The notes under the pieces were generated by a model. It was not told the DNA's origin. It searched no databases and saw only the letters and a list, made by a program, of their open reading frames with translations. From Celerinatantimonas sp. MCCC 1A17872 (GTDB taxonomy: Bacteria > Pseudomonadota > Gammaproteobacteria > Enterobacterales > Celerinatantimonadaceae), in contig NZ_JBEQCS010000008.1 in the NCBI RefSeq assembly GCF_046054195.1, forward strand, positions 14,090 through 78,089: a stretch of DNA of 64,000 bases. Reading direction: 5' to 3'. A program made the position numbers and the translations under genes. Numbering within the stretch: position 1 is the stretch's first letter; every line of letters begins with the position of its first letter. Shown one piece after another: positions 35,454 through 56,228 of this stretch.

Positions 35454-35686
35454 CCCCTAAAGATAGATTGCGGGTGGTCAGTTAAGTGTTATCGCCCATG
35501 AAATCGAATTTTTGGCCGATATCAGCTTAAATTCCCTCAAACTCATATCATGGTATGATTCAATTAATTTAAAAGCCAAAATCATCTGATTTAACGCCTT
35601 TGCTCACTTAAATTGAGTAAAAGTGCTTTTTTGTGTCTTTTTCCACATCTGCTCGGAATTATCAGAACAAATTAGGAGTAAACAAA

Positions 35687-38868: not shown

Positions 38869-39996
38869 ATGGCAACTGCATTTTTTTCTATTCCAGATAT
38901 CTATTTCGGCGATCATTCGCTTCGCTTCTTAGCCAAACTATCTCAGCATAAAGTCGCTATTGTGACGGATGCTTTTATGGCTTCTTCGGGTAAAACTCAA
39001 GAATTAATTCAAGCAATGCCTGATGCCCGTGTTGCGGTATTTTCTGAGGTGACACCGGACCCGAGTGTTGATGTTTTAAAAGCGGGCGTGAAGCAATTGC
39101 AACATTTTCATCCAGATACAATCATTGCGCTGGGCGGTGGCTCATCACTTGATGCGGCAAAAGGCATCAAAGTGACTCTAGAAGATTATGATCAAAGCCA
39201 GAAAATTGAATTAATTGCGATACCGACAACCAGTGGTTCTGGTTCAGAAGTAACTTCGTATGCGATTATCTCAGACCCTGCAAATGGGCATAAATACCCA
39301 CTCATTTCCAAAGAGTTAGTCCCTGATTGCGCAATTCTCGATCCGCAATTAGTTATGAGTGTGCCAACGCATGTCTCGATGGATACGGGCATGGATGTGT
39401 TAACCCACGCCATTGAAGCCATTGTATCAACCGGTGCTAATGACTTTAGTGATGCACTTGCGCAAAAGGCTATCGCTTTGACCACCATGAATTTACCACT
39501 GATTTTTCAAAACCCACAAGATATCGTTGCGCGTGAACATATGCACAACGCGTCATGCATGGCGGGGATGGCATTTAATAGTGCCGGCCTTGGACTGGTG
39601 CATGCGATGGCCCACGCGATTGGCGGAATGTTACACATTGCCCATGGCCGAGCTAATGCCATGTTATTGGCGTTAGTCATTGAGTTTAATGCCAAAGATA
39701 ACAATGCGAAAACCCTCGCAAATTATCATCGTTGTGCCCAGATGATGGGGATTAAAGAAGACAGTGATACAGCGGCCATTGCTGCAATGGTTCGCATGAT
39801 TCGTTTCTTTAATCAACGCTTTGGTATTGCTAATACCTTGATCGAAATGGGCAAAAATAGCGCTGAGCTTGAAGCGTTGCGCCCATCTATCGTGGCGGCT
39901 GCGCAAAATGACCGCTGCCTTGCTAGCAATCCTCGTTCAGTTGGTGAGAGCGAGCTTAGCGAGTTGTTTAATCGCGTTGCCGGGCTATCTGGATAA
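38869..39996 (+). CDS. Iron-containing alcohol dehydrogenase (EutG/PduQ-like)
   Basis: ALGGGSSLDAAKG NAD motif and an Fe-binding His cluster (HAMAHAIGG). First gene of the BMC operon. Confidence 0.85.
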   Translation: MATAFFSIPDIYFGDHSLRFLAKLSQHKVAIVTDAFMASSGKTQELIQAMPDARVAVFSEVTPDPSVDVLKAGVKQLQHFHPDTIIALGGGSSLDAAKGIKVTLEDYDQSQKIELIAIPTTSGSGSEVTSYAIISDPANGHKYPLISKELVPDCAILDPQLVMSVPTHVSMDTGMDVLTHAIEAIVSTGANDFSDALAQKAIALTTMNLPLIFQNPQDIVAREHMHNASCMAGMAFNSAGLGLVHAMAHAIGGMLHIAHGRANAMLLALVIEFNAKDNNAKTLANYHRCAQMMGIKEDSDTAAIAAMVRMIRFFNQRFGIANTLIEMGKNSAELEALRPSIVAAAQNDRCLASNPRSVGESELSELFNRVAGLSG

Positions 39997-40101
39997 GATT
40001 GTCTTGCGCTTTCAAGCTGGTAAAAAAAGTGCAGCGTAAAGGCAAAAACAATAAATCCAAACCTCATAGTCTAATAGTATCGATTGTTTTGGGGAGCAGT
40101 T

Positions 40102-40794
40102 ATGAATGATGTCCAAGTGCAGGCCGCTCTAATTACCCGGCAAATTATGCAGGAGTTAGTAAAAAAAGAGGCCGTTGCCGTTAACTCTTGTACCCAATTA
40201 TCAACAAAACTTGCGGTTCCTGTTGGAATATCGAATCGGCATGTGCATTTAAGCCGCGAAGATATGGACGTCTTATTTGGCAGTGGCGTTGAGCTAACTC
40301 GTTATAAAGCGGTCAAGCAGCCCGGCCAATATGCAGCTGATCAGACTGTGGTTTTGCGCGGCCCAAAAGGGGAGATTCAACGAGTCCGTATTCTTGGGCC
40401 GTTAAGAAGCGCCACTCAGATAGAGATTTCAATTGCAGATAGCTTCACCTTGGGAGTTAAAGCGCCACTTAGGATGTCTGGAGAGTTAGATAATTCCGCT
40501 GGTATTGAGATAGTGGGGCCTCGGGGCGTGGTGAAAAAAGATCATGGTGCAATCGTTGCCTGGCGACATATCCATATTTCACCTCAGGATGCTGAGCATT
40601 TTCAGCTCAGTGATGGTATGCAAATTGATGTTCAAACCCAAGGTGCTAGAGGCGGAATCTTGCAGCATGTGGTCGTTCGCGTGAGCTCTGATGCGGTGCT
40701 TGAAATGCATCTTGATGTTGAAGAAGCCAATGCACTAGGGCTTAAAAATGGTGATTTAGTTTATGGCTTAAGCAAGGCTTGCTCCCATGGCTAA
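40102..40794 (+). CDS. pduL: Phosphate propanoyl/acetyl-transferase PduL
   Basis: VPVGISNRHVHLS… and a second …AWRHIHISPQD repeat, characteristic of PduL. Confidence 0.85.
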   Translation: MNDVQVQAALITRQIMQELVKKEAVAVNSCTQLSTKLAVPVGISNRHVHLSREDMDVLFGSGVELTRYKAVKQPGQYAADQTVVLRGPKGEIQRVRILGPLRSATQIEISIADSFTLGVKAPLRMSGELDNSAGIEIVGPRGVVKKDHGAIVAWRHIHISPQDAEHFQLSDGMQIDVQTQGARGGILQHVVVRVSSDAVLEMHLDVEEANALGLKNGDLVYGLSKACSHG

Positions 40795-41623
40795 AGCCCA
40801 TACGCGAAGGCTTAAAGAGTTGGCAGCGCTGATGCGCCATCATGCGTGTCATCGTCGCCACGGGCCTTATAAAGTTGGAGTCGATTTAGGAACGGCGAAT
40901 ATTGCGCTAGTCGTGGTTGATTACGCCAATCAACCGGTGACAGGCATTAGTTATCCATCAACGGTTGTGAAAGATGGTGTTGTGGTGGATTACCTAAAAG
41001 CGAGCGAAGTCGTATCTATGCTCAAAGCTCAGTTAGAAGAGCGCCTTGGTGAGCCTTTGAAATATGCTGCCACAGCGATTCCTCCGGGAATTTCCTCAGG
41101 TGACACGAAAGTAATTGTTAACGTAGTTGAAGCGGCTGGATTTACGGTTACCAATGTGATGGATGAGCCAGTTGCAGCAGCAGTTGCCTTAAACATCACC
41201 GATGGTGCCGTCGTAGATGTTGGTGGTGGCACAACTGGGATGAGTGTGTTTTGCAATAACCAAGTTATCTTTAGCGCCGATGAGCCAACTGGCGGCACAC
41301 ATATGACATTGGTCGTTGCTGGCGCTTTGAATCTTCAATACGAGCAAGCAGAAGCGTTAAAAATTGCAAAAGAGAATGAAGCGCAAGTCTTTGAGCTGAT
41401 TCGGCCAGTTGTTGAAAAAATGGCGACGTTAGTTTGTGGATGGCTGGGGCAGTATCCAGTTAAAAAATTATGGCTGGTGGGCGGGGCAAGTAGTTTCTCG
41501 CAGTTTGCCGATGTATTTAGTGGTGTGACGAATGTTCCCAGTGTTGTGGCCCCTGAGCCGCTATTAGTAACGCCATTGGGAATTGCTATCAAGGCAAAAG
41601 AGGTGGCATCTGTTCATTTATGA
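40787..41623 (+). CDS. eutJ: EutJ-like actin-fold ATPase/chaperone
   Basis: KVGVDLGTANIALVVVD… and …DVGGGTTGMSV motifs. 8-bp overlap with pduL. Confidence 0.8.
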   Translation: MAKAHTRRLKELAALMRHHACHRRHGPYKVGVDLGTANIALVVVDYANQPVTGISYPSTVVKDGVVVDYLKASEVVSMLKAQLEERLGEPLKYAATAIPPGISSGDTKVIVNVVEAAGFTVTNVMDEPVAAAVALNITDGAVVDVGGGTTGMSVFCNNQVIFSADEPTGGTHMTLVVAGALNLQYEQAEALKIAKENEAQVFELIRPVVEKMATLVCGWLGQYPVKKLWLVGGASSFSQFADVFSGVTNVPSVVAPEPLLVTPLGIAIKAKEVASVHL

Positions 41624-42309
41624 AAAATCCATCGTTTGAGCACAAACTTGATGCAATGATTTTTGCAATCCTTGAGCAAAAACGCTTAAAAGCCAAGTTG
41701 CTGCGAGTGGTTATCACCGGTTCTGATATGCGCTCATTAGAGCGGATCTTTGCCTGTATCGATGCGTTATATCATCGTGGTTACGCCATTGCGATATCGT
41801 TTTCATATTCAGCTTTTAACTCGATGCTCGCCCAAGTTTGTCAGCGTTGGATAGAGGTGAAAAAGCTTAATATCACAACAGATAACTGTGGCCCTCATTT
41901 ACCAAAAGATGACTATTACGGCGTTTTTTTCCCGGCATTGTCGATGAATAGCTTGGCTAAAATAGCTCAGTGTCTGAATGATAATATTGCCTGTGAATGG
42001 GCATTTGATGCGCTTGCATGCCGGCGCCCTGTCTATGTCACACTCAGCGTCGATGAGGACGAAAGTCATTTTTCCAGCACAATGCGCCAATGCCTGAGCG
42101 ATTACGTCAAAGCTCTTAAAGGCCTTGGGGTACACGTGCTCACCCAAGCTTGCCCAGCGGCTCATAACCGCCGACAGCTAATCACTGTTGCCGACGTTCG
42201 TAAGATGCAAAAGCTGACATCTTTGTCTGTCGAGGCTGATGCGCTAATTACCCCAGCGGCACGGGATGAAATCAATCGTTTACAACTTGTTCTGAATAGA
42301 AAAAGTTAG
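41620..42309 (+). CDS. Hypothetical microcompartment-associated protein, possibly PduM-like
   Basis: Occupies the PduM position (after PduL, before the vertex protein). C-terminal …LITPAARDEINRLQLVL resembles PduM …VVTAMARDAANARNIQLI. Confidence 0.4.
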   Translation: MKNPSFEHKLDAMIFAILEQKRLKAKLLRVVITGSDMRSLERIFACIDALYHRGYAIAISFSYSAFNSMLAQVCQRWIEVKKLNITTDNCGPHLPKDDYYGVFFPALSMNSLAKIAQCLNDNIACEWAFDALACRRPVYVTLSVDEDESHFSSTMRQCLSDYVKALKGLGVHVLTQACPAAHNRRQLITVADVRKMQKLTSLSVEADALITPAARDEINRLQLVLNRKS

Positions 42310-42318
42310 GAGGAACAT

Positions 42319-42591
42319 ATGTATCTGGCCAAAGTGACTGGTGCAATTGTATCAACCACCAAGCATGAATCTTTAATTGGAACCAAGTTATTGGTTGTGA
42401 GCCGCATGGATGCGAATCATCAGATAACTGGCTATCCAGAAATTGCTGTTGATTGCGTTGGTGCGGGCAATGGTGAAGTGGTGATCGTTGCTGTGGGTAG
42501 TTCGGCTCGTAAAAGTCGCGAGCAGGTAAACTCAGTGATTGATGCTGCTGTGGTGGGAATTGTTGACTCTCTCGAAGTGAATGATGATTAG
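42319..42591 (+). CDS. eutN: BMC vertex protein (EutN/PduN/CcmL, BMC-P)
   Basis: 90 aa. MYLAKVTGAIVSTTKHESLIGTKLLVV… is typical of BMC-P. Confidence 0.85.
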   Translation: MYLAKVTGAIVSTTKHESLIGTKLLVVSRMDANHQITGYPEIAVDCVGAGNGEVVIVAVGSSARKSREQVNSVIDAAVVGIVDSLEVNDD

Positions 42592-42624
42592 GCGATAAAA
42601 ACTCGATGATTTAAGGCCACTATT

Positions 42625-43143
42625 ATGAGCGTCAATCAAACCCGCGAAAGTCGAAGTCTTGATCATCTCATTGATCAGGCAATTGACCAATACGCTTATG
42701 AGCCAGTGACAACGCTAAGCTTAAACGATGCGATGACACTGGGGCGATTGGCCCACGAACAAGCGCATCAAATAGGTGTTGCAATCGTCTTTAGCATGCT
42801 CGATTCAATGGGCTATCAACGTTACTTTTTCAGCATGGATAATGCACTGCTAGTCAGCCACCAATTGGCGTATCGCAAGGCTTGGAGCGCGGTTGCTTTA
42901 AAAATGCCAACGCATGAGCTAGCAAGCCTTTGTCAACCCGGGCAAAGCTTGTATGGGCTGTTGAATCACCCAGATATCTGTTGTGTTGGGGGCGGGCTAC
43001 CTTGTTGGCATAAAGGACAACTGTTAGGTGCAATTGGCATTAGTGGCGGAAGTGTCGAGCAGGATATGTCGGTTGCCAGCAATACTTTGTTTAAATTTAG
43101 CCAGTCTCGTTATTTACTGACGTCGTCACCATTGGCGGTGTAA
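42625..43143 (+). CDS. DUF336 (GlcG / PduO C-terminal-like) haem-binding family protein
   Basis: …GGGLP…GQLLGAIGISGGSVEQD signature. Confidence 0.7.
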   Translation: MSVNQTRESRSLDHLIDQAIDQYAYEPVTTLSLNDAMTLGRLAHEQAHQIGVAIVFSMLDSMGYQRYFFSMDNALLVSHQLAYRKAWSAVALKMPTHELASLCQPGQSLYGLLNHPDICCVGGGLPCWHKGQLLGAIGISGGSVEQDMSVASNTLFKFSQSRYLLTSSPLAV

Positions 43144-43164
43144 GCCAAATCAGCCGAGGTTGTT

Positions 43165-44373
43165 ATGCCATCATCTGAGCGCGGCATTTTAGTCATTAAT
43201 TGTGGTTCATCATCGCTGAAATTTTCAGTGTTGCCGCAGGATAAGGATACTCCACTTTTTTATGGTATCGCGCAAAAGCTGGGGTTATCCGATGCCGAGA
43301 TCACCTTTCATGATGAGCAAGGACAAACTTGTTGTTACCCACTTAAACGCAGCTCTCACCAATGTGCGTTAGAAACATTGTTTGCCTATATGCGCCAGCA
43401 TTCAATGCTAGGGTCGTTATGTGCGATTGGTCATCGCGTGGCGCATGGCGGGAACCTCTTTAGCCATTCGGTATTGATTAATGATGAAGTGATTGCTCAA
43501 ATCCGAGGGCTTTGTGCGCTTGCTCCGCTGCATAATCCAGCGAATTTAATTGGTATTCGCAGCGCCTTGGAATTATTACCTGATATTCCCCAAGTCGCTG
43601 TATTTGATACCGCTTTTCATCAAACTATCCCCGCCAAAGCATATACTTATGCAATCCCTTTGGAATATCGCGAATTGTATCAGGTGCGCCGATATGGCTT
43701 TCATGGCAGCTCGCATCGCTACATTACCGCAGAAACTATTCATCGGTTGGGGTTAAATCCGGCGCAATGTGGGATTGTGATTGCTCATTTAGGCAATGGC
43801 TCATCGGTTTGTGCGGTAAAAAATGCGCAAAGCGTGGATACCTCGATGGGAATGACGCCGCTCGAAGGCCTAGTCATGGGAACTCGTTGTGGCGACCTAG
43901 ATTGCGGAGTCCTCGCATATTTAGCACGGTGCACTAAACAGTCGATTGAGTCGTTATATGAGTTAATGAACAATCAGTCCGGTTTACTTGGCTTATCTGG
44001 TATATCGAGTGATTTTCGCGCTTTACAAAGCGAAAGACTATCGGGAAACCCCCAAGCAACACTTGCCATCGATGTCATGATCCATCGTCTGGCGCGTCAT
44101 ATTGGGGGGCATATGGCTTCGTTAGAGCATTTGGATGCATTAGTGTTTACCGGTGGAATCGGTGAAAATTCGCCGCTGGTTCGAGAGTTGACCGTTAAAA
44201 GTCTGGCGGTTTTTGGTTTTCGTTTGGATGAGCGGCAAAATAACGCAATGTGCTGCGGTGAAAGCGGCATTATTTCGCAACCTAACACCCCTGTGGTAAT
44301 GGTTATTCCAACCAATGAAGAAAAAATGATAGCCAAAGATGCAGCCGATATTGCACAGGGTATTGCATTGTAA
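43165..44373 (+). CDS. Acetate/propionate kinase (AckA/PduW family)
   Basis: ILVINCGSSSLKF and the phosphate-binding motif FHGSSHRY. Confidence 0.85.
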   Translation: MPSSERGILVINCGSSSLKFSVLPQDKDTPLFYGIAQKLGLSDAEITFHDEQGQTCCYPLKRSSHQCALETLFAYMRQHSMLGSLCAIGHRVAHGGNLFSHSVLINDEVIAQIRGLCALAPLHNPANLIGIRSALELLPDIPQVAVFDTAFHQTIPAKAYTYAIPLEYRELYQVRRYGFHGSSHRYITAETIHRLGLNPAQCGIVIAHLGNGSSVCAVKNAQSVDTSMGMTPLEGLVMGTRCGDLDCGVLAYLARCTKQSIESLYELMNNQSGLLGLSGISSDFRALQSERLSGNPQATLAIDVMIHRLARHIGGHMASLEHLDALVFTGGIGENSPLVRELTVKSLAVFGFRLDERQNNAMCCGESGIISQPNTPVVMVIPTNEEKMIAKDAADIAQGIAL

Positions 44374-44729
44374 TTATTAGCTCTACCAAGGCATTTATGT
44401 GGGTTATCTTATCCATTTCATCGCTATTTATATCTGCTGTTTTTAGTTTTTATCCCCCTCGTTGGCAGCGTCTGCGTTCGCTTGTTTTCTCTTTTGAATA
44501 AACCTGCAATTTATTGCATCTATCTAAGCGATGACCGCAAAAGAATCCCCCTAGGGGGCAAAACATTTTTCGGTAATCTTCATATGATGAAGATGCTAGG
44601 GAGGGTTGATCTTTGGTAGTTGCAAAACTAATCACAAAAGGTCCACTCCTCTAGTTAAAACGCATCAAGGTGAGCCGGGAGCGCTTAAGCCTTTTTGCTT
44701 TAATTATCATCGAAATTGCCGAGGTAGAT

Positions 44730-45011
44730 ATGCAACAAGAAGCATTAGGTATGGTTGAAACAAAAGGGTTGGTTTCTGCCATTGAAGCCGCCGATACCAT
44801 GGTTAAGTCTGCCAATGTGACACTGGTTGGTTACGAAAAAATTGGTTCAGGATTAGTCACTGTTATGGTCCGCGGTGATGTCGGAGCGGTAAAAGCTGCC
44901 ACCGATGCAGGATCCTCTGCTGCGGCGAAAGTTGGCGAATTGGTTTCTGTCCACGTCATTCCTCGTCCACATGTCGAAGTCGAAAAAATTCTACCCAAAA
45001 CGCTTGAGTAA
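44730..45011 (+). CDS. BMC-H shell protein (PduA/EutM-like)
   Basis: [35 protein letters not shown] 6 nt upstream of the ATG. Confidence 0.85.
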
Positions 45012-45026
45012 TCCATTTAGAGGGGC

Positions 45027-45818
45027 GTGACAATGAAAGAGAATCTTGTTGAGCAGATTATTTCTGAGGTAATGAATAATCAAAGTCATGTCGGTGAGCC
45101 AAGCCAAACTACGAAAAGCGGCCCATGTGGGTTAACTGAGTTTGTGGGTAGTTCTGAACTTGGTCATACCATCGGTTTAGTGATAGCAAGCGTCGATAGC
45201 CAGCTGCACGAAGTGATGAATATCGATACTAAATATCGCTCCATCGGTATTTTGGGCGCTCGCACAGGTGCCGGCCCACACATTTTTGCAGCCGATGAAG
45301 CGGTTAAAGCCACGAACAGTGAAATTGTCGCCATTGAGCTGTGCCGAGACACTGAAGGTGGTGGCGGCCATGGCTCTTTAATTATCTTTGGCGCTGAAGA
45401 CGTATCAGATGTGCGCCGCGCGGTGGAAGTTGCTCTGTCCGAGCTCAAACGCACTATGGGCGATGTTTATGGCTCACCCGCTGGCCATTTGGAATTTCAA
45501 TACACAGCTCGGGCCAGCTATGCGCTTAATAAAGCGTTTGGTGCGCCAATTGGCCGCTCATTCGGTATGACTTGTGCCGCTCCTGCCGCTATTGGGGTTG
45601 TGATCGCAGATACTGCTGCCAAAGCTGCGGTAATTGAGCCTGTTGCCTATTCGAGCCCGCAAAAGGGAACTTGTTTTAGCAACGAAGCCATATTTACTTT
45701 TGCGGGGGATTCTGGCGCCGTTCGCCAGGCCATTGTAGCGGCTCGAGAAGTTGGGTTGCAGTTACTCTCAACGATGGACTCAGCGCCAATTAAATCAACG
45801 ACAACTCCATATATTTAA
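45027..45818 (+). CDS. pduB: Tandem-BMC-domain shell protein (PduB-like, BMC-T)
   Basis: 263 aa with two permuted BMC domains and a GGGG loop, PduB-like. Confidence 0.75.
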   Translation: MTMKENLVEQIISEVMNNQSHVGEPSQTTKSGPCGLTEFVGSSELGHTIGLVIASVDSQLHEVMNIDTKYRSIGILGARTGAGPHIFAADEAVKATNSEIVAIELCRDTEGGGGHGSLIIFGAEDVSDVRRAVEVALSELKRTMGDVYGSPAGHLEFQYTARASYALNKAFGAPIGRSFGMTCAAPAAIGVVIADTAAKAAVIEPVAYSSPQKGTCFSNEAIFTFAGDSGAVRQAIVAAREVGLQLLSTMDSAPIKSTTTPYI

Positions 45819-45855
45819 GTTCATTGGTGCGCGTTTAAGTGGCGTGTAGTAAGGA

Positions 45856-47376
45856 ATGGCTAGTATGAATGATACTGAAATTACTCAGGCGGTCGCGCAT
45901 GTTTTGAGTAAATATACCCAAACAAACCCGCCTGAAGAGCATACCTGTCAGAGCGAAAATTCAAGCTTTGAGTTGGATAGAATCGTTGCTAAGGCTTTGG
46001 CCGAGAAGTTTTCAACCGCTGCCGTTGAGCCGCTATCTGCTCCAACGATTGACTCTCATGCAGGTGTCTTTGCAGCGATGGATGAAGCAATTGGTGCAGC
46101 TTTACAGGCTCAGATCCAATATCGGCATTGTTCAATGCGTGATAGAGAAAGCTTTATCAGTGGGATCCGCAGCATTTTTATTCAGGAGTCAATTCTTGAA
46201 AAAATTTCGCGGATGACAGTCGATGAAACAGGCATGGGCAATTACGATGATAAATTGATTAAAAATCGAATTGCTGCCACTAAAACCCCTGGTACCGAAG
46301 ATCTCACAACGTTTGCGTTATCTGGTGATGATGGCCTTTCATTGATGGAATATTCGGCTTATGGGGTGATTGGCTCGATTACCCCAACCACCAATCCAAC
46401 CGAAACCATTATCAACAATACTATTGGCATGTTGGCTGCTGGAAATACCGTGGTATTTAGCCCACATCCGCGCTCAACCAAAGTATCGCTCTATACCATC
46501 GATTTAATTAACCGCAAACTTGCTGAGCTTGGCGCACCTAACAACTTAGTTGTCACAGTTGCCAAGCCATCGATTGAGAATACCAATGCGTTAATGAATG
46601 ACCCGCGGGTCAACATGCTGGTTGCAACGGGTGGGCCTTCGATAGTGCGCGCCATTATGTCGACCGGGAAAAAGGCAATTGGTGCTGGAGCCGGGAACCC
46701 GCCTGTGGTCGTGGATGAAACGGCCAATGTGGAAAAAGCCGCTCAAGACATCATCAACGGCTGTGCCTTTGATAATAATCTGCCGTGCATCGCCGAAAAA
46801 GAGCTGATTGTCGTTAATGAAGTGGCTGACTATTTGATTCATTGCATGAAAAAATGCGGCGGTTATTTATTGTGCGATCCCAAATTAGCTCATCAGCTGC
46901 AGAATCTGGTCATCAATGCCAAAGGCACTGGCCCTAAAACTGAGTTTGTCGGTAAGAACGCCCGTTATCTTTTGGAACAGTTGGGAATTGACGCGCCAGC
47001 TGACATAAAAGTGATTCTCATTGAAACAGAACGAGACGACCCATTTGTTGTGAATGAGTTGATGATGCCGATTTTGCCAATTGTGCGCGTGGGCAACGTC
47101 GATGAAGCGATTGATTTGGCAGTAAAAGTTGAGCATGGCAACCGTCATACCGCGATGATGCATTCGATGAATGTAGAAAAATTAACCAAAATGGCCCGTT
47201 TAATCCAGACCACTATTTTTGTCAAAAATGGGCCATCGTATGCCGGAATTGGTGTGGGTGGCGAAGGCCATACCACCTTTACGATTGCAGGCCCTACCGG
47301 TGAAGGGCTGACTTCGGCCCGCTCGTTTGCCCGGCATCGGCGCTGCGTGATGGTCGAAGCGTTGAATGTTCGCTAG
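45856..47376 (+). CDS. CoA-acylating aldehyde dehydrogenase (EutE/PduP-like)
   Basis: 506 aa. ALDH fold with a catalytic Cys region (…NNLPCIAEKE…) and an N-terminal ~40-aa extension that may act as an encapsulation peptide. Confidence 0.85.
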   Translation: MASMNDTEITQAVAHVLSKYTQTNPPEEHTCQSENSSFELDRIVAKALAEKFSTAAVEPLSAPTIDSHAGVFAAMDEAIGAALQAQIQYRHCSMRDRESFISGIRSIFIQESILEKISRMTVDETGMGNYDDKLIKNRIAATKTPGTEDLTTFALSGDDGLSLMEYSAYGVIGSITPTTNPTETIINNTIGMLAAGNTVVFSPHPRSTKVSLYTIDLINRKLAELGAPNNLVVTVAKPSIENTNALMNDPRVNMLVATGGPSIVRAIMSTGKKAIGAGAGNPPVVVDETANVEKAAQDIINGCAFDNNLPCIAEKELIVVNEVADYLIHCMKKCGGYLLCDPKLAHQLQNLVINAKGTGPKTEFVGKNARYLLEQLGIDAPADIKVILIETERDDPFVVNELMMPILPIVRVGNVDEAIDLAVKVEHGNRHTAMMHSMNVEKLTKMARLIQTTIFVKNGPSYAGIGVGGEGHTTFTIAGPTGEGLTSARSFARHRRCVMVEALNVR

Positions 47377-47399
47377 TTCGTTTTAAGGTGGAGCTGAGC

Positions 47400-47699
47400 A
47401 TGAAAGTTCGAATTATCAATGCGCCAGGGGCCGATGTTTTAGCCATGCTAAAACGGCGAATTTCACCCGAGCTAAGACAAAGCATCGATTTGGTCTGCAC
47501 CGATGCAATTGGGTTAGTGCTATTGCCGATTCCTGATCTGTATTTTTATGCAGATAAAGTCAGCAAAAGGGCCAATGTCACAGTCACTGAGATCTGTGGA
47601 ACTTGTCCTCAGCATGTCACCACCCTTGGCATTTTTGGCGAGCTTTCCGCAGTAAGAGACGCGGTTCAAGTGATAGAGGAGGACTCAGAGAGTTTCTGA
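47400..47699 (+). CDS. Permuted BMC-domain shell protein (EutS/PduU-like)
   Basis: ~100 aa. The pattern …IDLVCTDAIGLVLL…ANVTVTEI…GIFGELSAV fits a permuted BMC fold. Confidence 0.55.
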   Translation: MKVRIINAPGADVLAMLKRRISPELRQSIDLVCTDAIGLVLLPIPDLYFYADKVSKRANVTVTEICGTCPQHVTTLGIFGELSAVRDAVQVIEEDSESF

Positions 47700-47707
47700 G
47701 TGAACCG

Positions 47708-48316
47708 ATGAATAAGCTCCTCATCTTAGCCGGTGATTTTTCAGAAGATTATGAAGTAATGGTGCCTTTTCAGGCGCTAAAAATGCTCGGATTTGATGTT
47801 GATGTGGTATGCCCGGGAAAGTTAAGTGGTGAATGTATAAAAACAGCGATTCACGATTTTGAAGGGGATCAGACTTACAGCGAAAAACCTGGCCATTTGT
47901 TTGTATTAAATGCCTCGTTTCGCGATCTCAACCTTGCTGAATATAGCGGTTTATATATCACCGGTGGGCGTTCATCAGAGTATTTAAGACTGGATGCAAG
48001 GGTGTTGCATGTTGTGGATTATGCCATTCACTTTGCGCTTCCCATGGCAGCGATTTGCCATGGAGTCCAGATCTTGGTTGCAGCTAATGTGCTTAAAGGA
48101 AGAAAAGTAACAGGGTATCCGAGTGTGAAACCTGAAGTCGAACTTGCGGGTGGGCAATGGGTTAGCGCTTGTGATGATGGGGCAGTAACCGATGGCAATT
48201 TGGTGACGGCTCCCACTTGGAAAGCGCATCCGGAACTGTTACGTGCGTTTATTCATTTGCTTGGGATTCGCTTCATGCAGAAGGCATCAGGCTCTGTCGC
48301 AAGGCTAAATAATTAA
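47708..48316 (+). CDS. DJ-1/PfpI-family protein (class I glutamine amidotransferase-like)
   Basis: Nucleophile elbow AAICHGVQIL and the overall DJ-1 fold pattern. 9 nt after the EutS-like gene. Confidence 0.7.
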   Translation: MNKLLILAGDFSEDYEVMVPFQALKMLGFDVDVVCPGKLSGECIKTAIHDFEGDQTYSEKPGHLFVLNASFRDLNLAEYSGLYITGGRSSEYLRLDARVLHVVDYAIHFALPMAAICHGVQILVAANVLKGRKVTGYPSVKPEVELAGGQWVSACDDGAVTDGNLVTAPTWKAHPELLRAFIHLLGIRFMQKASGSVARLNN

Positions 48317-48362
48317 GGTGTGATCTCGCTGTCTCGCCTTATCATATTTCGGGAGTAATTCT

Positions 48363-50912
48363 ATGTTAGAGAAAGGTTTTTCTAATCCGACCGATCGTGT
48401 TGTAAGACTCAAAACCATGATTCTGCAAGCTAAACCTTATGTAGAATCCGAACGAGCCGTGCTAGCAACCGAGGCCCATAAAGAGAATCAACATTTGCCT
48501 GCTGTTATGCGCCGGGCAAAAATGGTTGAAAAAATATTCAATGAATTGCCGGTGACTATTCGCCCTGATGAGCTGATTGTTGGGTCGGTAACCAAGCATC
48601 CGCGTTCGACTGAAATCTGCCCTGAGTTTTCATTCGATTGGGTAGAAAAAGAGTTCGAGACGATGGCTTCGCGAATGGCTGACCCATTTATTATTGAAAA
48701 ACAAACCGCTCAGCAATTACATGATGCATTTTTGTATTGGCCGGGTAAAACCACCAGTGAGCTGGCTTCGTCATATATGTCCCAGTCAACGCATGACAGT
48801 ATGGATAATGGCGTCTTTACGGTGGGTAACTACTATTTTGGCGGTGTTGGGCATGTTTGTGTCGATTATGGCAAAATTCTGAAAATTGGTTTTCAAGGAA
48901 TTATCGACGAAGTCACAAGTGCGCTGGAAAATTTAGACAGAACTAAACCTGATTACATTAAAAAAGAACAGTTCTACCATGCAGTATTGATTAGCTATCA
49001 AGCTGCGATTAATTATGCGCATCGTTATGCCGACGAAGCGGCGCGACTTGCTCAGCAAGAGCATAATCCGCAGCGAAAACAAGAACTCCAGCAGATCTCC
49101 AAAAACTGTCGCAGAGTCCCTGAATTTGGCGCAACTACCTTCTGGGAAGCCTGCCAAACATTCTGGTTTTTGCAAAGTATGTTGCAAATCGAATCCAGTG
49201 GCCATTCCATTTCACCGGGACGTTTTGACCAGTACATGTATCCATATTTAGCGGGCGATCATGCAATATCTGATGAGTTTGCCCAAGAGCTGGTGGATTG
49301 CTGCTGGATAAAACTCAACGATATCAATAAAACGCGTGATGAGGTCTCAGCTCAAGCATTTGCCGGTTACGCAGTGTTTCAAAATTTATGTGTTGGTGGC
49401 CAAAATGAACAAGGTTTAGATGCAACCAACCGTTTGAGTTATATGTGTATGGAAGCCTGCGCTCACGTTAGTTTGCCGCAGCCGTCATTTTCTATTCGAG
49501 TTTGGCAAGGCACGCCAGATGAATTTTTGTTCCGAGCTTCAGAAGTGGTTCGCTTAGGGCTCGGTGTGCCAGCGATGTATAACGATGAGGTGATTATTCC
49601 AGCGCTGCAAAACCGTGGTGTGTCACTTAAAGATGCTCGAAATTATTGCATTATTGGCTGCGTTGAACCGCAATGCCCGAATAAAACAGAAGGTTGGCAC
49701 GATGCAGCATTCTTTAATGTGGCAAAAGTGCTCGAAATTACCCTGCACAATGGCCGGGTTGGCAATAAACAGCTAGGGCCAGTGACGGGTGAAATGACCC
49801 AATGGCATAGTATCGAAGACTTTTATAGCGCATTTGAAAAACAGATGGCGCATTTTGTCCATAACTTGGTTGAAGCGTGTAATAGCGTCGATATGGCACA
49901 TGCCGAACGCTGTCCTCTGCCATTTTTATCCGCCATGGTTGATGATTGCATTGGTCGAGGAAAATCTTTGCAAGAGGGCGGTGCTATCTATAACTTCACG
50001 GGCCCGCAAGCTTTCGGGATTGCCGACAGTGGCGACTCTGTTTACGCAATGCAAAAACACGTGTTCGATGAAGGAAAAATCTCGCTTGAAGAGCTAAAAG
50101 GCGCATTGGATGCAAACTTTGGCCATGGGGTCGGTGAGAAAGTTGCAAGTAATACATCAAACTCTTATGCCGAACAAGATGTCTATGCCGTGGTTAAACG
50201 AATTATCGATCAAAATAGTTCGTTATCTCCGGCGGCAATTAAAGACGAGGTCTATCGTCAGTTAAATACAGTTTCTAACTCTGCGGTTGTGAGCACTGGC
50301 AATCTGTCTCGCTATGAAGAGCTACGCCATCTTTTGGAAAATACCCCGTGTTTTGGCAACGATATTGATGATGTTGACTACGTTGCTCGTCGGTGTGCTC
50401 TGGTTTATTGCAAAGAAGTTGAAAAATATACAAATCCTCGTGGCGGCCAGTTCCAGGCCGGTATTTATCCGGTGTCGGCTAATGTGCTCTTTGGTAAAGA
50501 TGTTGCCGCTTTACCTGATGGACGATTGGCAAAAGAGCCGCTCGCCGATGGGGTTTCACCTCGTCAGGGTAAAGATACCCAAGGGCCAACCGCTGCTGCT
50601 AACTCAGTGGCGAAACTTGATCACTTTATCGCATCAAATGGCACGCTATATAACCAGAAGTTTTTGCCATCAGCCTTAAAAGGTGAAAATGGTATTCGTA
50701 ACTTTAGTGGTTTGGTTCGCAGTTACTTTGATAAAAAAGGGATGCATGTGCAATTTAATGTGGTCGACAGAGACACCCTTATTGAGGCACAAAAACATCC
50801 TCAGGAGCATCAGGATTTAGTGGTTCGAGTGGCGGGGTATAGTGCGCAATTTATTGTACTGGCTAAAGAAGTTCAGGACGATATTATCAGCCGAACTGAG
50901 CAGCATTTTTAA
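48363..50912 (+). CDS. Glycyl radical enzyme of the PFL-like family. The dehydratase/lyase subclass could be 1,2-propanediol dehydratase or choline TMA-lyase; undetermined.
   Basis: 849 aa. Glycyl-radical motif VRVAGYSAQF near the C-terminus and catalytic Cys-x-Glu (IIGCVEP). Confidence 0.9.
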   Translation: MLEKGFSNPTDRVVRLKTMILQAKPYVESERAVLATEAHKENQHLPAVMRRAKMVEKIFNELPVTIRPDELIVGSVTKHPRSTEICPEFSFDWVEKEFETMASRMADPFIIEKQTAQQLHDAFLYWPGKTTSELASSYMSQSTHDSMDNGVFTVGNYYFGGVGHVCVDYGKILKIGFQGIIDEVTSALENLDRTKPDYIKKEQFYHAVLISYQAAINYAHRYADEAARLAQQEHNPQRKQELQQISKNCRRVPEFGATTFWEACQTFWFLQSMLQIESSGHSISPGRFDQYMYPYLAGDHAISDEFAQELVDCCWIKLNDINKTRDEVSAQAFAGYAVFQNLCVGGQNEQGLDATNRLSYMCMEACAHVSLPQPSFSIRVWQGTPDEFLFRASEVVRLGLGVPAMYNDEVIIPALQNRGVSLKDARNYCIIGCVEPQCPNKTEGWHDAAFFNVAKVLEITLHNGRVGNKQLGPVTGEMTQWHSIEDFYSAFEKQMAHFVHNLVEACNSVDMAHAERCPLPFLSAMVDDCIGRGKSLQEGGAIYNFTGPQAFGIADSGDSVYAMQKHVFDEGKISLEELKGALDANFGHGVGEKVASNTSNSYAEQDVYAVVKRIIDQNSSLSPAAIKDEVYRQLNTVSNSAVVSTGNLSRYEELRHLLENTPCFGNDIDDVDYVARRCALVYCKEVEKYTNPRGGQFQAGIYPVSANVLFGKDVAALPDGRLAKEPLADGVSPRQGKDTQGPTAAANSVAKLDHFIASNGTLYNQKFLPSALKGENGIRNFSGLVRSYFDKKGMHVQFNVVDRDTLIEAQKHPQEHQDLVVRVAGYSAQFIVLAKEVQDDIISRTEQHF

Positions 50913-50975
50913 ATCGCATCGAACAGGCCGTTCGATGAGCGGCCTGCAGTCTTTTCAAGATTAAAGAGCAGTGCT

Positions 50976-51896
50976 ATGAATAACGACGTTGATTATAATG
51001 CGCAGGGTGTTCTTTTTAATATTCAGCGATATTCGCTCCATGATGGTCCGGGGATCCGCACGATTCCTTTTTTTAAAGGTTGTCCACTTTCATGTAAATG
51101 GTGCAGCAATCCAGAGTCTCAGAATCCACATCCAGAAATCGTTTATAACCAGATAAGTTGTGTGCATTGTGGTAAATGTCTCGCAGCTTGTCCTGAGCAT
51201 GCAATTGCTCTGAGTAATCCATTTTTCATTGACCGGGATAAATGTATTAACTGTGGTCATTGTGCGGATGTTTGCCCAACTGGGGCGCTTGAGATCAAAG
51301 GTAAAACGATGTCGGTTGAGCAGGTGTTGCTTGAGCTTAAAAAAGAGGAAAATCTGTTTCGACGATCTGGTGGTGGTGTGACACTCTCCGGGGGTGAACC
51401 GCTCCAGCAACCGGTATTTGCTCGAGAACTACTCAAAGGGTGTAAAGAAAAAGGCTGGCATACGGCGATGGAAACCACTGGATGTGCGCCCAAAGAGGTG
51501 ATTGAAGATGTGTTTCCATGGGTTGATTTGGCATTAACTGATATTAAAGCGCTGAATCCCAAGATTCATAGAGAAAATACCGGTGTGGACAACACGCTGA
51601 TTTTAGAGAATTTGATGCGTATTTCGTTTATCACGAAAGTAGTGGTGCGGATCCCGGTGATTCCTGGTGTAAACGATAATCCAGATGAAATTCGCGCAAT
51701 TGGGGAATTTGCCAGATTACTCTCCAATGTGGATACCATTCATCTATTGCCTTATCACACCTATGGCCAAAATAAATATTCTCTGCTGGGGCGAATTTAT
51801 CCCATGGGAGATACACCTGTTATGGCCGATGAACAAGTTGAGCCTTTACGTGACGTGATAGAATCACTTGGCTTTCAGTGTCACATTGGTGGCTAG
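50976..51896 (+). CDS. Glycyl-radical-enzyme activating enzyme (radical SAM)
   Basis: CPLSCKWC radical-SAM cluster motif plus two ferredoxin-like Cx2Cx2Cx3C motifs. Confidence 0.9.
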   Translation: MNNDVDYNAQGVLFNIQRYSLHDGPGIRTIPFFKGCPLSCKWCSNPESQNPHPEIVYNQISCVHCGKCLAACPEHAIALSNPFFIDRDKCINCGHCADVCPTGALEIKGKTMSVEQVLLELKKEENLFRRSGGGVTLSGGEPLQQPVFARELLKGCKEKGWHTAMETTGCAPKEVIEDVFPWVDLALTDIKALNPKIHRENTGVDNTLILENLMRISFITKVVVRIPVIPGVNDNPDEIRAIGEFARLLSNVDTIHLLPYHTYGQNKYSLLGRIYPMGDTPVMADEQVEPLRDVIESLGFQCHIGG

Positions 51897-51921
51897 CTTT
51901 TGTAACCCTTAGCTGTTTGAT

Positions 51922-51956
51922 AAGCCATACATTGATTTGTGTGGCTTTATTTTTAT
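51922..51956. terminator. Hairpin terminator between the convergent activase and BMC-H genes
   Basis: AAGCCATACA-ttgattt-TGTGTGGCTT followed by TATTTTTAT. Confidence 0.5.
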
Positions 51957-51980
51957 CTGCTTAGTCGCAATGGTTCATTG

Positions 51981-52547
51981 TTATTGGCCACTTTTGTCGG
52001 AGTCTGCTTTGGGAGCTGCTTTTTTAGTCGTTTTTCGTGGGGCTCGTCGGGTTCTCGTTGTCGCAGTTTTACTGGTAGGTTTGGTGGCTGGTTTAACAGG
52101 CGTTGATTCTGGCCGTTGTATTAAAGCTGTCGTTTGGTGAGGGGCATTAAGCGTGCTCTGCGTTGGTTTTTTATCTGATGTCGCAACTTGTTTTAAGCTT
52201 TTTGATGCTTCAGTGTCATTGGGCGCAGGTGTTTTTTGGGTAGTCGGTGCAGGTGGCGCTTTAACCGTTTCGGCAGTATTTATCAGAGCATCTAGTCCGT
52301 TGGCCGTGCGTGCAATCACGCGATGCGCCCAGACTTTTCCCATTCGGTTGGCGGCAGCTACGCCAGAGGCAACCGCGGCGTTAATTGCGCCGACATCACC
52401 TTCGAGTTTTACTGTGACCAAGCCATTGCCTTTGGTTAGCTCATAGCCGATTAGTGTGACATTGGCTGATTTTACAGCAGCATCAGCAGCCTCTATCGCG
52501 GCGGTTAAGCCAACGGTTTCGATTAAACCTAAACTATGGTTAGACAT
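51981..52547 (-). CDS. BMC-H shell protein with a ~100-aa Lys/Thr/Pro-rich disordered C-terminal tail
   Basis: The N-terminal 90 aa form a canonical BMC domain (LGLIETVGLTAAIEAADAAVKSANV). The tail is low-complexity (…KPTQSTLNAPHQTT…TRRAPRKTTKKAAPK…). AGGAGA RBS. Confidence 0.8.
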   Translation of the reverse strand: MSNHSLGLIETVGLTAAIEAADAAVKSANVTLIGYELTKGNGLVTVKLEGDVGAINAAVASGVAAANRMGKVWAHRVIARTANGLDALINTAETVKAPPAPTTQKTPAPNDTEASKSLKQVATSDKKPTQSTLNAPHQTTALIQRPESTPVKPATKPTSKTATTRTRRAPRKTTKKAAPKADSDKSGQ

Positions 52548-52576
52548 ACTGTTCTCCTAATCGAATTTTCATGATG

Positions 52577-53743
52577 TTATGCCGCGCAGTTTGCTCGATG
52601 AGCGTCTTCTCGTAATTGCTCCGCTTTATCTATTTTTTCCCAGGGGAAGATATTGCGACCAAAATGGCCGTAGCAAGCTGTTTTTCGATAACGCGGAGTG
52701 AGTAAATCCAAGTGTTGGATAATTTGATAAACACTTAGCTCAAAATGTTCTTGGATTAAGCCGAGTATTTTTTCTTTGGCAATGGTTTCGCTACCAAATG
52801 TTTGAATATCTATAGAAATTGGGGCAGGGACCCCAATGGCCCAAGCCAGCTGAATTTCACATTGTGATGCAAGCCCTGCGGCGACAATATTTTTAGCGAT
52901 ATAGCGGGCGACATACGCGCCAGAGCGGTCCACTTTGGATGGGTCTTTACCTGAAAAAGCGCCACCTCCGTGGTGAGCAGCACCACCATAGGTATCAACA
53001 ATAATTTTTCTGCCTGTTAGTCCACAATCGGCGGCGGGGCCCCCGATGACAAATGGTCCGGCTGGATTAACGAGCAGTTGTGTATCATGTTTTAGCCATG
53101 CGTTTGGCAATACTGGTTTAATAATCTCTTCAATCACCGCTTCTTGTAACTGTTTTTGGCTGATATCGATGTGGTGCTGAGTGGATAGCACGACTGTTTG
53201 AGCTTGTATTACGTGGCGCTGGTTAAATCGCAAACTCACCTGAGACTTAGCATCAGGCAATAGAAAATCTAGCGTATGACTTTTACGAACGAAGGCATGT
53301 CGCTGCATTAATCGATGAGCAAACAGCAGTGCCGCAGGCATATATTCGGGCGTTTCATCGCAGGCATATCCATAGGTGATGCCTTGATCGCCAGCCCCTT
53401 GTTCTTGATTATCTTTGGCTCGAATAGCATCGCTGATATTCAATGACTGTTGGCCAAGTAAGTTAATCAGCCGGCAATGTTTGGCATCGAATCCTTTGTC
53501 GGCACTGTCATAACCTATCTCTTCGATGGTGCGATGGACAACTTGCTCAATATCAAATGTGGCCGATGAGCTAATTTCACCGGCTAAAACGATAGCATCA
53601 GATTTTAGAAGGCATTCACAGGCAACTTTTGCGCTTGGATCGCGAAGCAAAAAGCCATCTAGAATGGCATCACTGATTTGATCTGCCATTTTATCTGGAT
53701 GTCCTTCACCGACTGATTCTGATGTGAACAGATGACTATCCAT
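52577..53743 (-). CDS. metK: S-adenosylmethionine synthetase, divergent paralog
   Basis: MetK motifs LFTSESVGEGHPDK, GAGDQG and …GGGAFSGKDPSKVDRS. Only ~50% identical to E. coli MetK by eye. Confidence 0.85.
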   Translation of the reverse strand: MDSHLFTSESVGEGHPDKMADQISDAILDGFLLRDPSAKVACECLLKSDAIVLAGEISSSATFDIEQVVHRTIEEIGYDSADKGFDAKHCRLINLLGQQSLNISDAIRAKDNQEQGAGDQGITYGYACDETPEYMPAALLFAHRLMQRHAFVRKSHTLDFLLPDAKSQVSLRFNQRHVIQAQTVVLSTQHHIDISQKQLQEAVIEEIIKPVLPNAWLKHDTQLLVNPAGPFVIGGPAADCGLTGRKIIVDTYGGAAHHGGGAFSGKDPSKVDRSGAYVARYIAKNIVAAGLASQCEIQLAWAIGVPAPISIDIQTFGSETIAKEKILGLIQEHFELSVYQIIQHLDLLTPRYRKTACYGHFGRNIFPWEKIDKAEQLREDAHRANCAA

Positions 53744-53895
53744 TGCCCGCCAGTGTGATGATTCATTTCTTGTTAAGAATAAAAGAGCGATGGGCTAAGC
53801 GACATACACTATCTTGCGTGAATAGGGGAATTTTTTGCGCTGTTGATAAACTTTGAGCAGATTCATCATCTGTGGGGGATTGATTTTTTACAAGC

Positions 53896-54948
53896 TCAAA
53901 GTGTATCCACTTGCATACGCCGATACTCGGATGGCGCTTCGCCTGTTTCTTTTTTAAAGATACGACAAAAATAATTCGAGTCTTGCCATGATAACTCCAG
54001 CGCAATGGCGTTGATTTTTAATTCACTAAAGATAAGCAGTGAGCGAGCAATTGCTATTTTTCGCCCTGTGACATAATTAGAAAAACCGACACCGGTATGT
54101 TTCTTAAAGGCTCGACTGAGATAACAGGAGCTAACATACGATTTTTCGGCAATGCTATCTAATGTGACGTTAGTGAGAATATCATGCTCAATGTGAAATT
54201 TCGCGCGGCGTAAAAAATCCATATTATTACTCATGTTTTTAAAGGCGTGAGTAAATAATTTTTGAGATATTTTCATGAGTTGAAAAATTAACTGAGAATA
54301 GATGAGCTTATTTAAACTACTTTGGTGTACCTTTTGAGAAAGCATATTTAAGCTGTCTAATTCAACCTGATAGTTATCATCGGCTGATTCTAAATAAAGG
54401 TGAATAGTATCTAATAGCGTTAAAATAGCGCATTTAGCGGTTTGCAGCTCTTGATGAGAATCTAAGAATGCCTGATTGATATGGTTAAATATGAAGTCAT
54501 GCCAGAGCGGATAATCGCAGCTTTCAAGCATTTTGTTTAAGTCTTTTTTCAGCGTGCGAGTTGCGGCTATATCGTTATCATTGCAGCCGAGATTTTTTTT
54601 GATTGTTTCGACTAATGTTGTTTTTTTGACCGGTTTAAGCAGATAGTCCTCTACTTTAAGATTGATCATGGCGCGCAGCAGATCGAAGTCGTCATTCGCG
54701 GTGGTCACGATAACTTTGGTATCTCGGTTTTTAGCTTTGAGGTATTCAATCACCTCTTTACCATTGGGTAACGGGATATTGATATCAACAAACATCATGT
54801 CGATCTGTGTTAGTTTATCAATCAGATCAATTGCTTTTCGGCCTGTTGATGCTTCATGAAGAACCGCATTATCCACACATTCTGAAATGATCCGATGCAA
54901 AGATTCAAGTTCAATAGGCTCATCTTCAACAACAATAATATTGTACAT
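53896..54948 (-). CDS. Response regulator with CheY receiver and AraC-type HTH (YesN-like)
   Basis: Receiver (…MMFVDINIPLPNGKEV…) and a C-terminal AraC HTH (…SYVSSCYLSRAFKKHTGV…). Confidence 0.8.
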   Translation of the reverse strand: MYNIIVVEDEPIELESLHRIISECVDNAVLHEASTGRKAIDLIDKLTQIDMMFVDINIPLPNGKEVIEYLKAKNRDTKVIVTTANDDFDLLRAMINLKVEDYLLKPVKKTTLVETIKKNLGCNDNDIAATRTLKKDLNKMLESCDYPLWHDFIFNHINQAFLDSHQELQTAKCAILTLLDTIHLYLESADDNYQVELDSLNMLSQKVHQSSLNKLIYSQLIFQLMKISQKLFTHAFKNMSNNMDFLRRAKFHIEHDILTNVTLDSIAEKSYVSSCYLSRAFKKHTGVGFSNYVTGRKIAIARSLLIFSELKINAIALELSWQDSNYFCRIFKKETGEAPSEYRRMQVDTL

Positions 54949-54980
54949 AATGTATCTCGCTACATGTTGTTCATCTAAAT

Positions 54981-56228
54981 TTATTGTTTGTACTGGATTG
55001 GAAATGTCAGTGTAATAGTCGTGCCACCCATTGGTTTAAATGGGCTAGCAATTTCCAATTTTGATTGCTCTCCAAATAAAAGTTGTAAACGGTTAATGAT
55101 ATTATTAATGCCAATCCCTCCTTTTTGGCGGTTTTGGTTCCCGGAAAGAATGTGTTCAATATCGTCAGGTGATATGCCATTGCCATTATCTGATAGGGTA
55201 ATAATGACATTTTCACCATCATCTTTAGCATAGATATCTAATTGGCTTTTTGTTTCTCTTGGTTCGACAACATAATTAAAGAAATTTTCTACTAAAGGCT
55301 GCATAATTAAAAATGGGCAGATAATTTCTAGATATTTTGGGGCAATGTCACAGGTGTAATCAAATCTATCTCCCATTCTTACTTTTTGGATAGACATATA
55401 ATTTTGCACATATTTTACTTCGTGGCCTAAAGTAATTAAGCCGCGGCTATTTTTACGCAATAAATAACGCATCATATCTGAAAATTCATGCACCATGGTT
55501 TCGGTGCGTTGGGCATCTTCAAGATAAGCCAAGCGGCCAATCGTATTGAGGACATTAAATAAAAAATGAGGATTCACCTGATACGACAATGCTTTAAATT
55601 CAGCCTCATGAAGGGAGCGTTCGATTTCCATGCGTTTACGCAGTTCATCGGTTAATTCAAGCTCTTTTTGGTGGAGTTCACGTTGAATTGTATTGGTGTA
55701 TGCTTGCTCAACCAGATAAGAAACTAGATTAAACAGTGCATAAGAGATAGCCGAAAAGCGCTCATAAGGCATGGTTTGAATCGTCGAATCTTGAGATACA
55801 TTGAGTTGCAACTCATCGCGCAGATGGTTTTGCTCAAGAATATACTCAATAGCCTGCTCGTTGTCTTTCTCAACGTGGACCTGGCCTGAGATAAATGCGC
55901 CCAGATAGTGGCCATTAATCATAATCGGTACGGCACATTCGATGAATCCGCAATCACAGCGATAGACAACCGGTTTTTGTGCTTTCATCGCGGCCCTTCC
56001 GCCAGCATCATCGTTGTCGTAACAAATTTTGGCAAGTTCAGGGTTATTGCGAAAGTGAATGCATCTAGCGCAAAAGCCACTGGGGTGGGTTACCGGTACG
56101 CCATTCTCATCAACAATCACAAGCGCAACCATCATGGACTTACTGAAGTTATCTTGTAAGGTTTGCAGGCGTGCGACATCGATATATTCAGTAAGTTTAT
56201 AATGAGAAGCCATGATGGATACCTTCAA
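54981..56228 (-). CDS. Cytoplasmic sensor histidine kinase with an N-terminal PocR-like domain (YesM/LytS-type)
   Basis: No TM segment. N-terminal Cys-rich PocR-like region. [13 protein letters not shown]-box and a HATPase_c domain. Confidence 0.75.

Follow-up and report, generated by a model that had tools for sequence, protein, structure and literature searches.

A GrpL ortholog of the DJ-1d type beside the glycyl radical diol dehydratase of a Celerinatantimonas microcompartment locus

Background

What does a DJ-1/PfpI-family protein do in an operon that encodes a glycyl radical enzyme (GRE) and the shell of a bacterial microcompartment? The question is raised by a gene at 47708..48316 (+ strand) of a 64,000-nucleotide stretch of the genome of Celerinatantimonas sp. 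MCCC 1A17872 (contig NZ_JBEQCS010000008.1, positions 14,090 to 78,089; hereafter the window), where it lies between a shell gene and the GRE gene. It had been singled out in a first-pass annotation made from the sequence alone, which suggested that it could be an enzyme acting on reactive carbonyls. Here we ask which known gene it corresponds to, to which branch of the DJ-1/PfpI family it belongs, what it is linked to in other genomes, and which role best accounts for these observations.

Results

The gene and its operon

The open reading frame, of 202 codons, extends on the + strand from an ATG at 47708 to a TAA whose last base is 48316. A mechanical list of open reading frames also holds a longer version starting at TTG (47603..48316), which runs into the upstream gene; we place the start at ATG 47708 because the TTG version overlaps that gene and because all homologs begin at MNK or MKK. 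The stop codon of the upstream shell gene ends at 47699, leaving a gap of 8 nt before the DJ-1 gene, and the GRE starts at 48363, leaving a gap of 46 nt after it. The first-pass annotation had placed the gene correctly between the two, and its gaps of 9 and 47 nt differ trivially from ours. It had also proposed co-transcription with the shell gene and the GRE, and with this we agree: no promoter- or terminator-like sites were seen on the + strand between the three genes, the only terminator-like hairpins follow the GRE (50924-50946) and the activase gene (51922-51947), and the gene is very likely transcribed as part of the GRE microcompartment operon. Recent insertion of this gene alone was rejected, as its GC content of 45.2% fits that of the operon (44-50%).

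The surrounding glycyl-radical microcompartment locus, of the grp/GRM3 kind, is complete. Its upstream part (38869..47376, + strand) has a gene order identical to that of the E. coli loci L161 and L164: Fe-ADH, PduL-type phosphotransacylase, EutJ, flavoprotein, EutN vertex protein, HbpS/DUF336, acetate/propionate kinase, BMC-H, BMC-T and CoA-acylating aldehyde dehydrogenase. After the aldehyde dehydrogenase come a permuted shell protein, the DJ-1 gene, the GRE and the GRE activase. An L-lactate/malate dehydrogenase-like open reading frame (35633-36673, + strand) lies just 5' of the locus.

The gene immediately upstream (47400..47699, + strand), described as EutS-like in the first-pass annotation, does encode a shell protein, and is more precisely a circularly permuted BMC-H protein of the GrpU/GrpK type, with a match to GrpU in PDB entry 4olp (E 2e-36), the motif GTCPQ corresponding to the Fe-S-binding GXCPQ, and 62% identity to E. 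coli GrpK over 47400-47693. Its start is probably the ATG at 47400, which is preceded by GGTGGAG, rather than the mechanically assigned GTG at 47388. According to Ferlez 2019, homologs of GrpU are characteristic of GRM3b loci, and the window locus may therefore belong to that subtype.

Downstream, the GRE (48363..50912, + strand, 849 aa) is identified by profiles, PDB matches and synteny with grpM as a glycyl radical diol dehydratase orthologous to GrpM. It is of the diol/glycerol dehydratase type, its solved relatives being PDB 9rco followed by glycerol dehydratase (1r8w) and 1,2-propanediol dehydratase (5i2a); assignment as a choline lyase was rejected, the score against the CutC equivalog being 561 bits against a cutoff of 1050. 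The top solved relative, 9rco, is labelled 'Glycyl radical protein' and matches with 1565 bits in two stretches, far above 1r8w and 5i2a. The GRE-activating radical SAM enzyme that follows (50976..51896, + strand) is the ortholog of GrpN according to profile matches and synteny with E. coli.

The divergent part of the locus (51981..56228, - strand) encodes a BMC-H protein with a long tail, a SAM synthetase (GrpR-like), an AraC-type response regulator and a PocR histidine kinase (GrpQ/GrpP-like). The long-tailed BMC-H gene (51981-52547, - strand), divergent together with the SAM synthetase gene, encodes a protein whose C-terminus is extended by about 100 residues, with Pro, Thr, Lys and Ala abundant among them, and its E. 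coli counterpart, found in the same place, is 181 aa long. The structural grp genes (38869-53743) have a GC content of 44-50%, compared to 42% for the whole window and 37-40% for the two regulator genes (53896-56228); the operon may have been acquired horizontally.

The gene is the ortholog of a named accessory gene

The window gene is orthologous to grpL, which is already known by that name as an accessory gene of the microcompartment for glycyl-radical 1,2-propanediol use, and we refer to it below as grpL. Its product is 67.5% identical to E. coli GrpL over 191 aa. The E. coli homolog (P0020 in our set) lies in a locus whose gene order, from Fe-ADH through the PocR kinase, is exactly that of the window, and there too the homolog lies between a GrpK/GrpU-type shell gene and the gene for the GRE GrpM, with gaps of 10 and 48 nt compared to 8 and 46 nt here. 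In RefSeq the E. coli ortholog is named grpL by PGAP, 'propanediol utilization system protease GrpL', and its neighbours are the grpK shell gene, the grpJ aldehyde dehydrogenase gene and grpM, 'glycyl radical diol dehydratase'. A megablast search with the P0020 stretch found grpL in 539 of 5426 complete E. coli genomes.

The two systems differ in a few respects. The host here is a marine gammaproteobacterium, and the window protein has an additional disordered C-terminal tail of 11 aa which it shares only with its Vibrio relatives. The window locus also differs from the E. coli grp locus in that it has no homolog of the GrpO permease, none being found by tblastn over the whole 64 kb window; the activase gene is followed by only 84 nt (51897-51980) at the point where E. 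coli grp loci have permease GrpO (DUF7973).

Both the name and the genetic dissection of the grp locus come from work on the uropathogenic E. coli strain CFT073 (Lundin et al. 2020, J Bacteriol 202:e00017-20; cited in PMC11724981, PMC13450708 and PMC13210347). Earlier, the account of GRM3 loci in Axen 2014 (PMC4207490) had listed 'a peptidase' among their conserved ancillary genes, with an unclear role; that account gives no Pfam family for this 'peptidase', which probably corresponds to grpL. A dedicated GRM3-specific HMM for PF01965 was subsequently provided by Sutter 2021. For this type of locus, the first-pass view that this is not a standard gene of microcompartment loci is therefore contradicted by the E. 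coli RefSeq name, by the Sutter HMM and by the probable match to the 'peptidase' of Axen 2014. No text in the literature searched ties microcompartments to DJ-1, PfpI or glyoxalase.

Family, clade and active site

The protein is a single-domain member of the DJ-1/PfpI family, as the first-pass annotation had stated from the Cys-containing motif AAICHG, which occupies residues 114-119: PF01965 (DJ-1_PfpI) matches residues 3-182 of 202 with E 1.9e-38 and 132.3 bits, compared to a cutoff of 26.6. Among NCBIfam models, it passes the broad PfpI/YhbO subfamily model TIGR01382 (153 bits, cutoff 139) and fails two equivalogs, TIGR01383 for DJ-1 family glyoxalase III (25.2 bits, cutoff 131.25) and NF040823 for deglycase PfpI (75.4 bits, cutoff 330). 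There was no significant NCBIfam match to ThiJ, isonitrile hydratase, Hsp31 or YajL models, so membership of the ThiJ or isonitrile hydratase clades, which the first-pass annotation had named as evidence that would count against its reading, was not found, with the caveat that the protein does pass the PfpI/YhbO subfamily model.

In a sequence search of the PDB the top match was Arabidopsis DJ-1d (AtDJ-1d; At3g02720; PDB 3uk7, 4ofw, 4ogg), a glutathione-independent glyoxalase III, with E 1.6e-119 and both of its tandem domains aligning over the whole query at about 50-55% identity (about 55% for the C-terminal and about 50% for the N-terminal domain). Next came PH1704 (2e-21), other archaeal PfpI proteins, Pseudomonas aeruginosa PfpI, YhbO (5e-14), DR1199 and SAV1875; Drosophila DJ-1β was a marginal match (8e-5), 4p5p, labelled only 'ThiJ/PfpI family protein', matched at E 3.3e-4, and no chain of Hsp31 or YajL was found at E <= 1e-3. 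The same ranking was obtained by Foldseek with an AF2 model of the window protein (mean pLDDT 88.5): the best matches were 4ofw and 4ogg, both AtDJ-1d, at TM 0.87 and 55% identity, with identities lower down of about 30% to PfpI/YhbO and about 20% to human DJ-1. The comparison with the Hsp31, YajL and PfpI clades that the first-pass annotation had recommended thus places AtDJ-1d nearest, with PfpI/YhbO more distant and Hsp31 and YajL not matching.

AtDJ-1d and the window protein have a fold, a Glu/Cys/His active site and an insertion, HDFEGDQTYSEKPGH, in common, and in sequence, fold and insertion the window protein belongs to the DJ-1d type (the plant DJ-1D/OsDJ-1C group). They differ in that AtDJ-1d has two tandem domains and the window protein one, and in that AtDJ-1d, unlike the window protein, has no tie to glycyl radical enzymes or microcompartments. 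The DJ-1d-specific insertion lies at residues 49-63 and is at least 97% conserved at 10 of its 15 positions over 105 sequences. Glu16 (in EDYE) and Cys117 (in AAICHG), the equivalents of Glu18 and Cys106 of human DJ-1, are invariant in 20 homologs, and E16, E91, C117 and H118 are each at least 97% conserved over the 105 sequences, which include both AtDJ-1d domains. In the structure of AtDJ-1d with glyoxylate (4ogg), the residue aligned to Cys117 is a modified residue in both domains. The copies linked to a GRE show no special substitutions at conserved sites among the 105 sequences; candidate clade-specific substitutions in these copies were confined to positions 17, 33 and 107, which are hydrophobic and weakly discriminating, none being at the catalytic site.

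The PfpI/PH1704/YhbO class (peptidase C56, 'intracellular protease I', also reported as glyoxalases or deglycases) shares with the window protein the TIGR01382 match and the Cys-His nucleophile elbow, together with the Glu of GGR(A/S)xE that completes the PfpI triad, Glu91 aligning with the Glu of the PH1704 GGRAPE motif. Its identity to the window protein is only 26-32%, however; PfpI and YhbO do not have the DJ-1d insertion of 15-17 residues found in the window protein, and the window protein falls below the threshold of NF040823.

Because the closest characterised relative is AtDJ-1d, a glyoxalase III, glyoxalase-type chemistry is supported for GrpL. Among the glyoxalase III enzymes of Arabidopsis, AtDJ-1d is reported to be the most active, with a kcat of 0.69 s-1 on phenylglyoxal compared to 0.027 s-1 for human DJ-1 (PMC5859077, PMC10127264). 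Since TIGR01383 and NF040823 failed, the assignment to glyoxalase III rests on this one characterised two-domain plant enzyme. Of the glyoxalase or deglycase activities suggested by the first-pass annotation, the former fits the clade; the latter is disputed for the DJ-1 family, in which deglycase activity has been explained as glyoxalase action on free methylglyoxal in equilibrium with its adducts (PMC10127264).

Linkage to a diol dehydratase lineage

DJ-1d-like proteins are very widespread, with at least 594 confirmed matches in species-representative genomes. Among the best 80 genomic loci (of at least 594), 70 are stand-alone, with no GRE or shell gene nearby, and these stand-alone copies are found mostly in aerobes (Paraburkholderia, Flavobacteriia, Planctomycetes, Acidobacteria). 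Eight of the same best 80 (of at least 594) are GRM loci, and in all eight the DJ-1 gene directly adjoins the GRE on its 5' side, in the same orientation. These eight loci (in Neisseriaceae, Cohaesibacter, Rhodobacter aestuarii, Caproiciproducens, Clostridium intestinale, C. clostridioforme and others) span Beta- and Alphaproteobacteria and Firmicutes, and the arrangement of their remaining genes differs. The DJ-1 gene likewise adjoins the GRE in Rhodospirillum rubrum, where it is the first gene of the operon.

In a reverse survey, the GRE was used as query on metagenome contigs and the loci were binned by identity to the window GRE. A DJ-1 gene directly preceded the GRE in 8/8 loci at GRE identity of at least 75% and in 19/24 at 67-74%, that is in 27 of the 32 close loci (identity of at least 67%), and then in 0/24 at 60-66% and in 1/4 below 60%. 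The gene is therefore present in orthologous loci, and the absence that the first-pass annotation had said would undermine its reading was not found in this survey. The single distant example (L149) is one of three GRE clusters that carry a DJ-1 gene and no shell genes: it contains DJ-1, GRE, activase, acylating aldehyde dehydrogenase, PocR kinase and AraC regulator genes (L149:5067-13519), with no BMC gene within 6 kb. In the other two, L022 and L061, the DJ-1 gene lies 2-5 kb from the shell-less GRE cluster.

Nearly all GRE-linked DJ-1 copies form one clade in an NJ tree, extending across Proteobacteria and Firmicutes. The exception is a GRE-linked copy (L129) that falls inside a clade of stand-alone Firmicute copies, sister to the GRE-linked clade; the neighbours of the stand-alone members of this sister clade are only unrelated genes (glycosyltransferase, PNP, HTH, integrase, YgbB). 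The DJ-1 gene thus tracks a particular diol dehydratase lineage and not the shell, and because shell-less clusters carry it beside related GREs the link is to the dehydratase rather than to the compartment.

In GRM loci without a DJ-1 gene, the slot 5' of the GRE is taken by divergent BMC, Fe-ADH or PduV genes or by a transposase. Non-orthologous displacement was rejected, as no VOC/glyoxalase gene lies upstream of the GRE in these loci; since related loci that have no grpL have no alternative glyoxalase in the slot, its role is not essential. One of the close GRM loci that have no DJ-1 gene carries a DDE transposase gene (L091:4624-5592) directly 5' of the GRE, which suggests secondary loss or disruption at that slot.

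Location of the protein

The first-pass annotation had also considered an encapsulated enzyme. An encapsulation peptide, which would be an amphipathic helix of about 18 residues joined by a linker to either end of the fold, was not found in the window protein. The first strand starts as early as residue 3 and leaves no space for such a peptide at the N-terminus. At the C-terminus, the last core helix (171-184) is followed by an 18-residue tail which is Gly/Ser-rich and predicted as coil, with pLDDT below 50 from 189 to 202; most GrpL orthologs, including that of E. coli, end right after the core fold at 191 aa, the tail being common to close Vibrio relatives only. Together with the occurrence of DJ-1 genes in shell-less GRE clusters, this argues against a dedicated luminal role, and the encapsulated variant of the first-pass proposal is not borne out. 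Piggy-back encapsulation may occur, while GrpL itself most likely acts in the cytosol.

Discussion

A candidate role in damage control, and its rivals

With moderate confidence, drawn from sequence comparison, we propose that GrpL may be a non-encapsulated accessory scavenger of 2-oxoaldehydes, a glyoxalase III of the DJ-1d type that is co-expressed with the diol dehydratase. Transcription of the operon, under the control of the PocR kinase and the AraC regulator, would carry grpL immediately 5' of the diol dehydratase gene. Through these regulators grpL may be induced with the operon by 1,2-propanediol under anoxia; the presence of both regulator genes and the lack of promoter- or terminator-like signals between grpL and its neighbours are indirect signs of this. 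The Cys117 thiolate would attack the aldehyde carbon of a 2-oxoaldehyde such as methylglyoxal or glyoxal to give a hemithioacetal, Glu16 and His118 would move protons by way of an enediol to an S-acyl thioester, and hydrolysis of the thioester would release lactate or glycolate without the use of glutathione. GrpL would then serve as dispensable damage control, clearing reactive 2-oxoaldehydes during 1,2-propanediol fermentation; a possible source of these is the Fe-ADH, which might oxidise 1,2-propanediol to lactaldehyde or hydroxyacetone and onward. That such a role would most likely be cytosolic follows from the missing encapsulation peptide and from the occurrence with shell-less GRE clusters.

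A scavenger of this general kind leaves unexplained the strict slot of the gene beside the GRE rather than beside the ADH or aldehyde dehydrogenase. The slot would be explained, in Proteobacteria, Firmicutes and shell-less clusters alike, if GrpL were a dedicated partner of the GRE that destroys a specific by-product of radical dehydration or over-oxidation or maintains the GRE directly, although we consider this doubtful. A related proposal, to which we lend little credence, is that GrpL is a protein repair enzyme ('deglycase') or holdase that clears or shields aldehyde adducts on the GRE, the activase and the aldehyde dehydrogenase, possibly binding the GRE; the adducts meant are early ones on Cys, Lys and Arg. 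The conservation of GRE adjacency while the rest of the locus is rearranged, the joint inheritance of GRE-linked copies with the GRE in the NJ tree, and the name 'deglycase' given to PH1704 by its PDB depositors are all in keeping with such a protector. Against it, the deglycase activity of DJ-1 proteins has been ascribed to glyoxalase action on free methylglyoxal (PMC10127264), and the GRE-linked copies carry no clade-specific change of surface or active site.

The public name of the protein implies instead a cysteine peptidase of the PfpI type, which might turn over or process Grp proteins, for example diol dehydratase that has been cleaved by O2 or damaged by aldehyde, or have a regulatory role as suggested in Axen 2014 (PMC4207490). 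The PGAP name 'protease GrpL', the match to the PfpI/YhbO subfamily model, the conserved and intact equivalents of the PfpI triad (Cys117, His118, Glu91), which would equally suit an amidase, and the adjacency to the GRE even where there are no shell genes are compatible with this, yet we judge it distinctly unlikely: identity is about 30% to PH1704/PfpI compared to about 55% to a demonstrated glyoxalase III, the deglycase/PfpI equivalog fails by a wide gap (75 bits against 330), the word 'protease' apparently goes back to the family label (peptidase C56) rather than to an experiment, and the literature searched contains no paper that pairs GrpL with propanediol. Finally, grpL could be a general stress gene with no pathway-specific role, captured once beside a GRE and retained through linkage during horizontal spread of the locus. 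In favour of this, most of the surveyed family members stand alone (70 of the best 80 genomic loci, of at least 594), the gene is missing from 5 of the 24 loci at 67-74% GRE identity and from all more distant GRM loci, and no GRM-specific substitutions were found. Lundin and colleagues are also said to have found that only 8 of the 19 grp genes are required to ferment 1,2-propanediol. We nonetheless regard this as unlikely, as the slot and orientation are kept across Gamma-, Beta- and Alphaproteobacteria and Firmicutes despite heavy reshuffling of the other genes, the catalytic residues are intact and strongly conserved, and the gene also occurs beside shell-less GRE clusters.

Implications

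As the ortholog of a named gene already catalogued in surveys of microcompartments, the window gene in itself adds little to the inventory of these loci. That it tracks the diol dehydratase, shell-less clusters included, argues against an encapsulated role for GrpL. Were GrpL a dedicated partner of the GRE, this would point to a new, uncharacterised step in the grp pathway. With about 55% identity to a glyoxalase III compared to about 30% to PfpI-type proteins, the public name 'protease' is probably a misnomer, and the annotation has been widely propagated, grpL being present in about 10% of complete E. coli genomes.
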